Of a DNA stretch of 64,000 nucleotides, positions 288 to 47,728 are shown one piece after another (the stretch's first letter is position 1; each line of letters starts with the position of its first letter). The translations under genes were made by a program, and so were the position numbers. The notes under the pieces are model-generated. The model did no database searches. It was not told the DNA's origin and was given only the letters and a program-made list of their open reading frames with translations. Location of the stretch: the NCBI RefSeq assembly GCF_006345805.1, contig NC_043006.1, positions 37,510,001 to 37,574,000 on the forward strand. Reading direction: 5' to 3'. Origin of the DNA: Octopus sinensis. Its lineage: Eukaryota.

Positions 288-339
288 CGAGCCGATGATA
301 GAAATGTTGTTTTGACTAATCTTGAAACGTACGTTCTCG
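288..339 (+). ncRNA. Minimal type-I hammerhead ribozyme motif (CCGAUGA core variant)
   Basis: CGAG-CCGAUGA-(imperfect stem II)-GAAA-C-GUAC-G-UU-CUCG; stem I CGAG/CUCG; palindromic stem-III loop GUAC. Confidence 0.65.
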
Positions 340-738
340 AATAACCTTAGCATTTGATTTTTCGATGTCATTACCCCAAACTTTTGTGAGTTAAATTATG
401 CAAACACTATATATGAGAGAGATTTTCTTTAAGTATTAGAAATAGCCTTAAAAAAGTTTTTTAGCTGCTATTTCTAATGAGTTCAGTATGCGGCAAAGTA
501 ATTTATTTTACTAAGCCCTTTTATATAATGTAATAATTTGAATTCGCCTTGAATGGTCCCTTTGCATACTGAACACTTGGTGAAATTGATTAATAATTAA
601 TTAATTTTGCCCTCAATTGTTGAGATATATATATATATATATATATATATATATATATATATATATATATAGATATATATATATATATAATTTACATATA
701 TATATATATATATATATATATATATAGCTACTGATGAA

Positions 739-894
739 CATTAAGATGCGTTAGGCATCAGAATGGAAAAATCATCGGTGATCTATTTCAATCTGCGACC
801 ATAGGGGGCTTGCCTCTCTTGTCAGCTTATTAGGATAGTGCTTTTTGTGGTTATAGAGTCGTTTTGACTCTCATTTCTAGCAATGCTGGTGCTG
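739..894. repeat. ~155-bp interspersed repeat, copy 1 (copy 2 at 2142-2296)
   Basis: Direct alignment cattaagat...gctggtgct between the two loci; copy 1 is preceded by ctgatga and contains a hairpin followed by gaaa. Confidence 0.8.
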
Positions 895-895
895 A

Positions 896-1520
896 TGACA
901 GTAGTCGAGTGTGGGTCTGGAGTCTGTGATCAAGAATTTGATGTGAAAAGATTTCAGCCAACAATGAAACACGACAGCGATTCTGTGATGACCTGGGGAG
1001 CAATTTGGAGCAATGGTTGATCAGAGCTGGTGGAGTGTGCGAGAAATATAAACTCAGATAAATGTGTCCAATCTCCTCCAGTAGTGAATGATAAATAAAG
1101 GCTCTTTATTTATAGAAGATGGTGCTTCTTGTCACTCGGCTAAAATGATACAAGATTTGTTGGATGAGAATGGCATTAAAAAGCTTCCATGATCAAGCCA
1201 GTCACCAGATATGAACCCCATGGAACACTTCTGGGGCATAATGGACAGGACACTTCATAAAAAGAACAAGAAAGCATCTTCAAAGCCAGATGTTTTGAGA
1301 TCACTGCATGAAACTTGGCAAAGAAATTCCGCAAGAGAATATTCGTCATCTGATCAGTAACAGGACTAATAGGGTCCTGGTATTGAAAAATGCAAAGGTC
1401 ATGTCTTCTAAATGTTAAATATTCACATTATAGCAATTAATAAATAATTTGAATGTATAATTTCATATTTAAATACATTTTAATGATTATAAGGGTGTCT
1501 ATTTACTTCCGTCATGTCTG
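896..1520 (+). mobile_element. Tc1-family transposon 3' remnant (disrupted DD34E transposase plus right TIR)
   Basis: Translates with frameshifts/stops to SVMTWGAIWSNG, EDGASCHSAK and KKLP*SSQSPDMNPMEHFWGIMDR; ends in ggtgtctatttacttccgtcatgtctg, homologous to the copy at 51837-52700. Confidence 0.9.
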
Positions 1521-2141
1521 TGTCTATACATTATAATATAAATGTACACGTTCATGTGTGTGTAGGAGTGTGTGCTCGTGTAACTGTATTTGTGTATGCT
1601 TATGTCAGTGAAGATAAGTGTACGCCTGTATGTGTATCTGTTTGGGAGAGTAAAAGGGTATCTATTTATCACAAATATAATCTAGAAATAACTGATTGAT
1701 GCAGCCACCAAGCATCACTATCGCTAATCACTACACACGTACAAAGCCACGCCCCAGCATATTGCTAGACACCAATGATAGCATCAACAACCCCATCATC
1801 GCTATCGTTACTATCATCAACAACAACACTTTCCGACCCAAATTGGTAGCCTCTACATCAGTGGTTCGTTCTCAAGTAGGGTCCATACAAGATTTTGTGC
1901 TATAGATTCGTTATGCTGCTGCAATACAAAAAATCTTTTAACAATTCGTTTATGCAATTCCTCCCAAAATTTAATTATAGAAATATAAGATTTTTTAAGC
2001 ATTGAATGGTTATGAGAGTAAAATAGGAATACCAGGGGTCCATAGATTTAAAAAATGGTTGAGAACCGCTGCTCTGCATAATCACTCGATCTGCTACAAA
2101 CAGCAACTAAATCCCCTTCAAATCACACCCTACTCTCTAAG

Positions 2142-2296
2142 CATTAAGATACGTTAGGCATTAGAATGCAAAATCATCGGTGATCAAGCTCAATCTGCGA
2201 CCATTGGGGACTTGCCTCTCTTGTCAGCTCATTAAGATAGAGCTTTATGTGGTTATTGAGTCGTTTTGACTCTCATTTCCAGCAACGCTGGTGCTA
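2142..2296. repeat. ~155-bp interspersed repeat, copy 2
   Basis: Matches 739-894 in the same orientation. Confidence 0.8.
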
Positions 2297-44085: not shown

Positions 44086-44400
44086 TCTCTTTTACTCTTT
44101 TACTTGTTTCAGTCATTTGACGGTGGCCATGCTGGAGCACCGCCTTTAGTCGAGAAAATTGATCTCTTTTGCCGAACCGCTAAGTGACGGTGACGTAAAC
44201 ACACCAGCATCTGTTGTCAAGCGATGTTGGGGGGACAAATACAGATACACAAACATATACACACATGTACACATATATATATACATATATACGACGGGCT
44301 TCTTTCAGTTTCCGTCTACCAAATCCACTCACAATGCTTTGATCGGCTCGAGGCTATAGTAGAAGACACTTTCCCGGAGCCATGTGGTTGGTAAGCAAGT
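44086..44400 (-). mobile_element. SINE family A (deleted copy)
   Basis: Homology to other family A copies. Confidence 0.85.
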
Positions 44401-44796
44401 TTGATATCGTGTATTTCTAAACTTCTATTTAGCCCCATCATTCGCAACGATGCAAATGGATTGTGTCCCATAAACTGGACCCTATTCTGGAACACATTGG
44501 AACGATAATAAAAAAAAACTCTTAGCATGACTAGAACAAATTCCAAGGGGGGATGCCCATTGATGCTACGCCGAGATATGTACTTGCCCATGAAAATTTA
44601 GAAAAGAGCTATATGACACGAAGCTTTAAATCAAACAACAGGGAAAAAAGGCAGATAGCTCCTCATTTACGAAAATACCCTACACTGGCAACAGCAAGAA
44701 GTGCCGTTGGTGCAGCAGCAAGCCACGTATAAACTATAGAATTCGAAACGTTGAGTACGATAAAAGATGCATGGAAAGACACTATAGGGATCGTGA

Positions 44797-45173
44797 CTCT
44801 CCGTCGGTTACGACGACGAGTGTTCCAGTTGAACCGATTAACGGAACAGCCTGCTCGTGAAATTAACGTGTAAGTGGCTGAGTGCTCCACAGACACGTGT
44901 ACCCTTAACGTAGTTCTCGGAGAGATTTGGCGTAGCACAAAGTGTGACGAGGCTGGCCCTTTGAAATACAGGTATAACAGAAACAGGAAGAAAGAGTGAG
45001 AGAAAGTTGTGATGAAAGAATACAGCAGGGTTCGCCACCACCCTCTGCCGGAGCCTTGTGGAGTTTTAGGTGTTTTCGCTCAATAAACACTCACAACGTC
45101 CGGTCTGGGAACAGAAATCGTAATCCTATGACCGCAAGTCCGCTGCCCTAATCACTGGGCCAGTGCGCCTCCA
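44797..45173 (-). mobile_element. SINE family C head joined to family-D-type tail
   Basis: Head tggaggcgcactggcccagtg as in 53617 and 58664; tail gtatttcaaagggccagcc...ctcgtcgtcgtaaccgacggag as in family D. Confidence 0.85.
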
Positions 45174-45839
45174 CTACTGTAGGGAAACCACTACAACCTA
45201 CATAGAAGAATCAGTTCACAGTTTATACACGTATGCAAGGACGGAGAACACTAACGTGAATACACTGGGAGGAAACAAATATCTGTACTCCATCATATAT
45301 GTGTGTGTATGTGTGCGTGTCTGTCTGTAAGTGTACGTGTGTCAGTGTATAGGTGTGTGTGGGTGTGAGGGCGTATGGCATAGTGGTTTCGACCGTGTGG
45401 TGCGCTGTTTCTTGATAAAAACACTCAATGTCACGTCGCTCGTGATCACTTTGACAATAGGTGTAAGATACACAGTGCACCCGTTCAGGTAACGTCCATT
45501 TCATGCAGGGGGTGAGCTAATGCACAAAACATACATTTGATCACTATAAACAAATTATTTGTGCCGAGAGTTCAGCAAAACATTGCAGATTCGTTTTTCT
45601 CAGACATCACATGGTACTACCATCCATCCATCCATTTGTGTGTGTATGTGTGTGTGTGTGTACACATACACACACACACACATACAAACATACTTGCACA
45701 CACACACACACACACATATATATATATACATATACATACATATGTGTGTGTGTGTGTGTGTGTGAATTCTTACCGACAGGTACATATGGCCTTATGTACC
45801 TGTTCTTGAGAAGTTCAAAATCTTTCATTCTTACCTATA

Positions 45840-45924
45840 TTCACTTGATAAAAACGGTTTTTGCATGATGTCATATTTCTGCTCATCAATAAAAAAAAAA
45901 CATGTTTGAAACAGCTGTAGTGAA
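45840..45924 (+). ncRNA. Type-I hammerhead motif with UUGAUAA (U3:A8) core and long stem II
   Basis: UUCAC-UUGAUAA-AAACG...UGUUU-GAAA-C-AGCU-G-UA-GUGAA; 5-bp stem I. Confidence 0.7.
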
Positions 45925-47640
45925 CTACAATCCATCTCTTGTTATTTGTTTATCTAAATATTATACACATACGCACACATACAATGGATATTGTTACATT
46001 TTACTTCTACTAAATCCCAATCACAACAAGGCAAGGCACTGGGCAGCACAAGTTTTCAGTAAAAGAGACGTACCTAAGGTATCAAGAATGCGTAAGGTTT
46101 ACTTGCCTAAGGTTGCAGTAAAAGAGGCTTGCGCAGTTATCGCGATGGATCCCGGAACCAAATGGTTTAGAATAGGGATGGTTAACCATACAGCTACTTT
46201 ATTCGTTGCTACGAGTTCATTGATCCCAATTCTCCTCCAGCGTTGGTTGCCACCATAAAAGCCGAATGGAATCGCCAGCCTCGGCAATGATTTATATCTG
46301 TTACCAGCCACTTGTATACATGAATACTTACATAACATTGAAAGAGGTTTTTGCAGCAGCTGTGTTAATTTGACATCAGAAAGCAGATATATAAACAAGC
46401 AGAGACCTCTAAAATTGCGACTTCCCACGTTCCAGCCTTATGTACGAAGGGATATAGATGCATGTGTGCATATGTACATGTTTGTATATATATATATACA
46501 TATATATATATATTATATATATATATATATATATATACATACGTATAAGGAATTTCTCAAAGCGTTTACCGTTTTACTCACAGTTTTCAAAAATTCATAT
46601 ATACATATGTGTGTGTGTTTGTGCGTAATGTATATATATATATAATATATATATATATATATATATATATATATATATATATACACATACATATACATAT
46701 ATATACATATATATACATATATATACATATACACACACACACATATTAACATACATATAATGCGAACTCTCTTTCAAGTTTGCGCAATATGCATATGTAA
46801 TTCAAATATTGATATGACACAGAAGATCTATACAGGGAATAGGGTGTGCACATACATTCGCGCACACACAAACACACTCACACACACAGATAGATATATA
46901 GATAGATAGATAGATAGATAGATAGATAGATAGATAGATAGATAGATAGATAGATAGATAGATAGATAGATAGATAGATAGATAGATAGATAGATAGATA
47001 GATAGATAGATAGATAGTTAGGTCCATTCATATATACTCTATTGTATATTTAATTGCATAAAAGTGAATCATATATTGAAAAATTCACAAGAAATCTCAT
47101 ACAAAAACTGAATTACGTATGTCCACACATACATACAAAGGCATACACACATACATAGATACTTACATACATATATACATACATGCACATATGCATATAA
47201 TAGATATATACATACACACATGCATACAAGCTTGTCTGTGTCACTAAGAAGCTCACTTTGCAACCACGTGACTTCGGACTTAGTCCCACTACGCGGTATT
47301 TTGGGGAGTCTTTTACTCACCTAGATTGACCAATGCTTTGTGAGTGAATTTGACAGATGGAAAATGTGTGGAAGCCCGTCATAGATAGATAGATTTGCGT
47401 ATATGTGTATATATATATATATAATATATATATAATATATGTATGTATGTATATATATATGTATATATACATATATATTTGTATATGTAGATATGTATTT
47501 ATATATATATTATAAAATAAAATAAGAATAGGAAAATTACATCAAAAAATCATCACAGATGATATATATCCAAAATAATATTGTATTAATAGATAGATGT
47601 ATAAATATATAAAGTATGATTATTTAAAAAGTTTAAAATA

Positions 47641-47728
47641 TCTTACGATCGTTTCGTGAATGTATTGCCCTTAGAAATGGAATCTAAATTTGATATTCAT
47701 TATTAGGTAATACATTCACTCATCAGAG
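47641..47728 (-). ncRNA. Type-I hammerhead motif with long stem II, stem I clipped at Helitron junction
   Basis: Minus strand CU-CUGAUGA-GUGAAUGUAUU...AAUACAUUCAC-GAAA-C-GAUC-G-UA-AG; 11-bp perfect stem II. Confidence 0.75.

Follow-up and report, generated by a model that had tools for sequence, protein, structure and literature searches.

Penelope-like elements as the likely source of dispersed minimal hammerhead folds, some with altered cores, in a window of the Octopus sinensis genome

Metazoan Penelope-like elements (PLEs) are already known to carry minimal hammerhead ribozymes in their pseudo-long terminal repeats (pseudo-LTRs, pLTRs) (PMC4209133; Cervera and de la Pena 2014), and why they do so is an open question (Craig et al. 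2021, PMC8557442). These ribozymes have the type-I order, a short stem I and a palindromic stem III, often with a bulged base after A9, and come in many unrelated families per genome, mostly as solo copies, with opposite-strand pairs 100-700 bp apart and, in Schistosoma Cercyon, a U3-A8 core variant (PMC4209133). The same traits recur in the window considered here, a 64,000-nt stretch of Octopus sinensis contig NC_043006.1 (positions 37,510,001 to 37,574,000, assembly GCF_006345805.1), for which a preliminary description had claimed 15 hammerhead motifs; positions below are those of the window, and motif families are named after them. The octopus differs from the genomes surveyed in PMC4209133 in its motif number, ~10^5 by sampling compared with ~2,000-9,000 per genome (the descriptors differ), in having many families with palindromes of 4-8 nt and a very long stem II, and in families with fixed A6U or A13C cores, which were not found in that text or in one of its supplements, a supplement that also has no octopus entry.

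Where protein-coding parents could be linked to the motifs, the resemblance extends to the endonuclease-bearing Neptune and Nematis PLEs (PMC8557442), with a DKG-motif reverse transcriptase (RT), a CX4CxxC linker (CX2-5CxxC in Neptune and Nematis), a C-terminal GIY-YIG endonuclease, pLTRs, an inverted 5'-truncated copy, a one-sided tail, (TA)n targets and an optional upstream open reading frame (ORF). To these two clades the likeness is one of linker and target bias, and the database proteins at the top of the list for the element with the A6U core are only 52-57% identical to it. Two ORF-less, low-GC tandem families (288 and L169) resemble animal non-LTR retrozymes (PMC7229834; Li et al. 2026, 10.64898/2026.07.22.740005) in having one type-I hammerhead per unit and strong self-pairing as a folded circle, but their units measure 535-546 bp as against a typical 150-450, their arrays hold inverted segments and sit in (TA)n, their circles are predicted folds, and the 288 ribozyme is of the minimal type with U4C and U-U. 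The U3-A8, U4C and U10.1-U11.1 changes seen here match natural core variants already described (Perreault et al. 2011, PMC3088659; Naghdi et al. 2020, PMC7151607). Natural variation at position 6 is known once, as the A6C of phage Bcep176, slow in Mg2+ and active in Mn2+ (PMC3088659, PMC7151607), whereas A6U, fixed here in tens of thousands of copies, is in neither text. No natural A6U core and no octopus PLE hammerhead turned up in the literature searched; U6 or cephalopod examples may stand in Lunse et al. 2017 (PMC5785218), in Figure S7 (inactive variants) of PMC3088659 or in supplement file 1 of PMC4209133. The giant squid has 235 Rfam hammerhead_1 hits (PMC6962438), and octopus PLEs are known to be active, with 31 recently active families reported in a paper whose main text does not mention hammerheads (PMC13282606).

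All 15 motifs were recovered at, or a few bases off, the positions claimed, in the order and on the strands described, with the stem-III palindromes CGUACG (288), CAGCUG (10017, 45840), CGAUCG (33295, 47641), CAUG (39645/40155), CCGG (37472), and CG (21571) as announced; we read them as minimal type-I hammerhead folds. The window has a GC content of 36%, is microsatellite-dense (149 TRF rows) and comes from a 2.72-Gb assembly. In it a strict descriptor gave 2 matches against a mean of 0.025 in 40 block-dinucleotide shuffles, a relaxed descriptor 11 against 1.85, and a scored descriptor tolerating one core or palindrome mismatch 5 against 0.125 at a score of at least 19. The core is kept in 11 of the 15 copies, known U3-A8 and U4C variants counted, with imperfect helices in several: stem I is down to 2 bp at 47641 through 5' truncation and weak at 39645/40155, stems II and III are mismatched at 27059, and the loop at 38274 is a nonpalindromic GAAC. 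An invariant position has changed in 4 of the 15, namely at 27496 (A6U), 37325 and 37472 (A13C), and 41461 (U16.1C), and only six of the 15 reach a score of 17 in the unbiased scan. Further decayed candidates, beyond the motifs listed earlier, are given in Table 1. A cmscan of the window against Rfam (E ≤ 5) returned no hammerhead among the 150 of 292 matches listed, which were microsatellite-driven miRNA noise, and a repeat search was dominated by microsatellites with the exception of an inverted pair at 39550-40297.

The fold is also visible in a larger sample. In 1.85 Mb, 21 motif contexts were found against one match in shuffles of the same sequence. The search did not require palindromy, yet of the 15 loops measuring 4 or 6 nt, 13 were perfect palindromes; stem-III loops were palindromic or near-palindromic in 16 of the 21 contexts. 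An exception to the palindromic stem III is the 38274 family. Cleavage triplets were GUC (12), GUA (5), AUA (2), GUU (1), and AUC (1). The U3-A8 pair occurred in five contexts as opposed to one for each unpaired intermediate. Compensatory changes in stem I separate homologous lineages (CGAG/CUCG versus UGAG/CUCA), including those of 21571 and 27496 (G-C versus C-G).

Multi-copy families linked to PLE proteins, a check suggested in the preliminary description, were found, with linkage in 4 of 13 families. Ten genome searches returned 16 to 2,211 first-look candidates per query, which are not copy numbers: 675 for 288, 2,211 for 10017, 1,274 for 21571, 549 for 33295, 881 for 37472, 1,398 for 38274, 16 for 41461 (at 73-89% identity), 612 for 45840, 253 for 47641, and 2,203 for the 27143 region, whose query spanned 27059 too and whose copies are often in inverted pairs. 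Among the fetched loci (designated L), BLAST shows 27496 and 39645 to belong to multi-copy families, and a single relative was found for 27059.

Four of the 13 families, accounting for 6 of the 15 positions (39645/40155, 38274, 37325/37472, and 27496), can be assigned as 3' pLTRs of PLEs encoding RT and GIY-YIG, in support of the earlier view of PLE-type hammerheads in microsatellite-associated modules. The clearest case is 39852-40251, which is 100% identical to L023 608-1007 and 6541-6940, the two pLTRs flanking a 781-aa RT and GIY-YIG ORF. A search with PF01541 (GIY-YIG) gave 5,029 candidates, of which 147 of the 150 scored pass, several in intact ORFs of 775-781 aa with RT upstream. RVT_1 followed by GIY-YIG lies in one ORF in L023, L021, L256, and L262, with RVT_1 just under the cut-off in L023/L021 and GIY-YIG under it in L256/L262; a CX4CxxC linker before the endonuclease is visible in the L023 and L256 proteins, and (TA)n stands at the 3' ends. 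The joint ORF holds for the parents of 39645/40155 and 27496; for 38274 and 37472, endonuclease fragments only were found, in 5 of 15 loci a few hundred nucleotides upstream and on the same strand as the motif for 38274, and ahead of the pLTR in L154 for 37472. The 27496 motif lies downstream of RT-endonuclease fragments in L202 and L160. Its clade's endonuclease has 16,401 candidates (52 of the 150 scored are 100% identical), and in 15 of 16 fetched long-ORF loci the U6 motif (that with the A6U change) follows the RT-endonuclease ORF, the sixteenth (L267) holding a one-base variant. In six of the 16 (L256, L257, L261, L262, L264, L271) two such motifs with one common orientation flank the ORF, the unit being ~4.5 kb (L256, motif at 2730 and 7238). 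Inverted 5'-truncated copies with a one-sided 30-40 bp tail occur in the window at 39548-40297 and 37200-37580. As described before, the window itself has no PLE RT, and tblastn of eight PLE proteins found no PLE ORF there; this reflects 5' truncation, not want of an autonomous parent, and most copies of the four PLE-linked families are 5'-truncated ends.

Further upstream, the young PLE of the L023 type also carries a 479-aa ORF without a Pfam match (L023 2173-3612; L026 5999-7438). It overlaps the RT-endonuclease ORF by ~80 nt in a different frame, which may be a frameshift arrangement. Past the PLE stop, the 3' untranslated region/pLTR of L022-L027 contains several tandem units in which ATTGG and TGACGTC boxes are frequent; these boxes resemble CCAAT and CRE promoter elements.

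Our preferred reading, to which we give a probability of about 0.8, is that multi-copy repeats carry the motifs, as minimal type-I hammerhead folds, at their 3' ends, that four families are pLTRs of endonuclease-bearing PLEs and the others likely the same or noncoding derivatives, and that in source elements the ribozyme would need to dimerize or be helped by protein to cut the tandem precursor RNA. In most of nine families examined the 3' end is fixed and the 5' end ragged, the copies ending in (TA)n ~100-130 nt beyond the ribozyme and frequently showing an inverted copy and one-sided tail. Building on the observed pLTR position, truncation polarity, (TA)n target, inverted copies and palindromic stem III, and on PLE biology as described elsewhere (PMC4209133, PMC8557442, PMC11167929), we suggest that the endonuclease nicks (TA)n and that the RT starts near the 3' end, usually aborting early so that the hammerhead-bearing end is what is left behind most often. 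The outcome would be ~10^5 dispersed solo motifs, mostly passive and decaying. In source transcripts, the palindromic stem III would pair two motifs of a pLTR-ORF-pLTR or tandem RNA into an active dimer, whose cutting is predicted to be slow or protein-helped, and short ORF-less units (the 288 family, probably 21571) would borrow PLE enzymes.

Several points weigh against this reading. For seven of the 13 families (10017, 27059, 27143, 33295, 41461, 45840, and 47641), searches with few PLE proteins as queries showed no ORF lying 1.5 kb or less from the fetched copies (for 10017, none in 12 loci), and for that reason we infer rather than observe their parent, although their mostly fixed 3' and ragged 5' ends fit a PLE origin. 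The youngest subfamilies have weak or noncanonical ribozymes (a weak stem I in L023; A6U; A13C), and insertion of a lizard PLE in vitro is unaffected by hammerhead-dead mutations (PMC11167929); taken together, these suggest that cleavage may be dispensable.

Genome density was estimated from a 1-Mb sample made up of 100 stretches, each of 10 kb and starting at a round coordinate, from 26 large contigs. The strict descriptor gave 10 matches compared with 0-1 in five shuffles, a single tandem array supplying 6 of the 10, and the scored descriptor 37 (score at least 19) against 1-2. At a score of at least 17 there were 44 matches in 31 of the 100 stretches, forming 30 clusters, with ~4 expected by chance. 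Near-intact motifs thus number ~35 per Mb in the unbiased scan of this sample, which extrapolates to on the order of 10^5 in the genome, and homology to known seeds gives at least 75 motifs per Mb, decayed copies and seeds included. The claim of one motif per 4-5 kb, a hand count including decayed copies, therefore overstates the genome average; scaling 15 motifs per 64 kb to the whole genome was rejected, and the motif density of the window is ~2x the sample average, on small numbers. The microsatellite association that had been proposed is real but one-sided: across 71 copies, (TA)5+ lies at a median distance of 164 bp in the 3' direction and 488 bp in the 5' direction, compared with 1,496 bp (sample) and 858 bp (window) for random points.

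The A6U core of 27496 is a property of its clade, which has 13-16 copies per Mb, or ~4 x 10^4 in all. In 29 distinct copies, obtained from the 30 of 38 nhmmer hits that could be parsed (the other eight strayed too far from the pattern and were excluded), U occupies position 6 in 28 and C in one; A is never found there. The positions N7 (C7/A8/G4/U10) and H17 (A21/C5/U3, never G) vary, no change is seen at U4, G8, A9, A14, or A15.1, and CpG decay accounts for most of the remaining changes. Selection on a hammerhead would leave this split between variable and constant positions. Reading the core as UUGAAGA was rejected, as it breaks stem I; the family register is CUGUNGA. The 21571 family, a homologue of the 27496 family, is its A6 sister. 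With any base allowed at position 6, a descriptor gave 30 matches in 25 of 80 metagenome loci of related PLEs, which stand in for the flanks of the closest protein relatives, with 28 A6 and no U6; the 30 include antisense-in-ORF GAAA-UA and GAAA-AU-UU matches treated as chance, and several of the 30 share the A-bulge, GCUC, CG scaffold. Since these related loci keep A6, U6 is likely derived in the 27496 lineage. Its retention across A6U subfamilies makes it likely that the fold remains under selection, either as a structural signal or as a ribozyme that is slow or conditional. C6, the variant of phage Bcep176, was observed in single copies of the U6 clade (L262 2839; L160 about 8650). All copies of the 21571 and 27496 lineages keep a GAGC(G) downstream of the ribozyme, at a distance of ~20-30 nt (minus strand; 21540-21548 and 27470-27480 in the window). 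Pairing of this GAGC(G) with stem II's GCUC strand could give a competing helix.

The strongest competing explanation concerns function rather than origin, and we hold it to be only a little short of an even chance: in the most successful families, the hammerhead would be catalytically dead, surviving as RNA structure (an RT-bound rod-like hairpin or a dimerization signal) or as a hitch-hiker. U6 would allow UGU(U) to pair with (A)ACG, and the fold predicted for the L256 motif is a rod; changes of A6 are strongly deleterious in Mg2+ (PMC3088659; PMC7151607 for A6C). The 37472 family has amplified to 881 candidates although its U3-A8 and A13C (GCAA) core is family-fixed, with C13 in 12 of 12 copies, and its stem I is ~2 bp; PAc with a dead hammerhead remains able to insert in vitro, and Naiads flourish although they lack hammerheads (PMC11167929, PMC8557442). 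Set against this, the positions that vary in the U6 clade are those free in a working hammerhead, a pure rod would favor U7, and contigs of other subfamilies match mainly an island at 2717-2765 of the U6 pLTR. The motif is also more conserved than its flanks (0.90 versus 0.55 and 0.73), a contrast partly imposed by the search pattern and drawn from copies that are not independent events. A tentative proposal, which we think rather less probable than its negation, is that a dominant and still-amplifying PLE clade runs on a natural hammerhead with the new core CUG-U-N-GA, kept through several subfamily turnovers as a conditional ribozyme; U6 would lock the monomer in a rod, and cutting would need dimerization, an element protein or another metal ion.

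It is unlikely that most families are truly nonautonomous, as had been suggested earlier, in the sense of retrozymes or hammerhead short interspersed elements (SINEs) amplifying as small circular or multimeric RNAs, and the part of that view that stands is narrow. The 288 family forms head-to-tail arrays of a 546-bp unit at 99% identity, inverted segments included, with 2-5 or more units in 9 of 10 loci counted and one type-I hammerhead per unit; the unit has 33% GC, a longest frame of 92 aa and a circular fold of z = -4.0, and can be classed as retrozyme-like. The 21571 family, possibly of the same kind, has a near-fixed length of ~225 bp and a near-fixed 5' end, and an octopus repeat annotation (PMC13282606) counts 893 unclassified SINE families as recently active. 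On the other hand, four families sit directly on PLE ORFs, and most others are solo or inverted copies rather than tandem arrays, with ragged 5' ends and shared upstream extents of 50-600 nt, as for truncated long elements. A second tandem hammerhead family was observed at L169 2775-5293 (G000:C1:135000001-135010000) and L025 8052-8704, with a 535-bp unit, a canonical core (CAAUUG, GUC), an inverted segment in the array and a circular fold of z = -8.2; it is the better retrozyme candidate of the two.

Chance matches in AT-rich, microsatellite-rich DNA can be dismissed: relaxed descriptors do carry real background (51 per Mb against 10-23 in shuffles), the window match at 38980 appears spurious and three extra candidates lack relatives among the fetched loci, but the strict and scored scans, in the shuffle control that had been called for, exceed shuffles ~20-fold or more, the families are multi-copy and four lie in PLE pLTRs; a chance origin is refuted for 14 of the 15 positions, with 27059 depending on its one relative.

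The features of the window are collected in Table 1. Relatives of the 45840 copy mostly have CUGAUGA or CUGAAGA. The only protein-coding traces identified in the window are the 3' end of a long interspersed element (LINE) at 42369-43412 (minus strand; zf-RVT domain, E 2.5e-5), which we take to be L1/Tx1-like by resemblance, and a Helitron PIF1 fragment at 48046-48576, part of a broken Helitron-type PIF1 helicase fragment (47768-48576, minus strand) that adjoins the 5'-truncated 47641 module. An inverted repeat module lies between (TA)n tracts at 21703-21760 and 22170-22290 and contains, at 21848, a half hammerhead GAAA-CAGCUG-UA without a clear 5' core box. A minisatellite at 2652-2875 has a 17-bp period, ~11 copies and a higher-order periodicity of 83-100 bp.

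Table 1. Hammerhead motifs and associated elements in the 64,000-nt window.
Feature	Position	Strand	Details
Partial (~410 bp) monomer of 546-bp ORF-less tandem family, retrozyme-like	214..624	+	between (TA)n tracts
288-family hammerhead	288-339	+	CCGAUGA (U4C), U-U at 10.1-11.1, loop CGUACG, GUU site
Minimal hammerhead	10017..10064	-	U4C core, stem II 7 bp, CAGCUG, GUA
Inverted pair, decayed hammerhead-like	10468-10540, 10827-10899	-, +	CGAUCG, GUA
Candidate nonautonomous element, ~200-bp module	21468..21670	-	flanked by (TA)n
Intact minimal hammerhead	21571-21605	-	CUGACGA, A bulge, GAGC/GCUC, CG, GUA
Decayed hammerhead, core intact	27059..27099	-	one relative found
Type-I hammerhead	27143..27203	+	5-bp stem I, bulged stem II, near-palindromic CUCGGAG, GUU
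Decayed 3' end, A6U PLE clade	27432..27615	-	hammerhead 27496-27531, core CUGUUGA
Intact hammerhead	33295..33411	-	13-bp stem II, CGAUCG, GUC
Extra decayed candidate	34396..34450	-	CAGCUG, GUA; no relative among fetched loci
Inverted pLTR pair with one-sided tail	37200..37580	both	hammerheads 37327-37362 (-), 37475-37510 (+)
pLTR of third PLE lineage	38117..38420	+	inverted partial copy 38117-38228
38274-family hammerhead	38274-38313	+	U4C in window copy, GAAC loop, CUC site
Classic PLE insertion	39548..40297	both	inverted truncated copy with tail 39548-39853; pLTR end 39852-40297
Hammerheads of the 39548..40297 insertion	39648-39689, 40158-40199	-, +	U3-A8 core, CAUG, weak stem I
Old-family hammerhead	41466..41512	-	family loop UAGUACUA-like, AUC site; window copy U16.1 to C
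Older-family hammerhead	45840..45924	+	5-bp stem I, CAGCUG, GUA; UUGAUAA here
5'-truncated (at stem I) hammerhead beside Helitron helicase fragment	47640..47730	-	14-bp stem II, CGAUCG, GUA
Extra decayed candidate	52795..52832	-	CAUG, GUC; no relative among fetched loci

What appears to be new, as judged from the sequences, is the fixation of core changes (A6U, A13C) in amplifying families. Sister lineages built on one ribozyme scaffold, with A6 in the 21571 family and the metagenome relatives versus U6 in a very abundant and young clade, together with the fixed-A13C family, amount to a natural experiment on whether catalysis can be given up by successful PLEs or a new conditional core has evolved in them. 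If the U6 core is conditional, its ~4 x 10^4 copies would be a large natural population of core variants among ~10^5 hammerhead motifs. With ~10^5 motifs in at least 30 families, some of the "unclassified SINE" families of the octopus library may be PLE ends or retrozymes.

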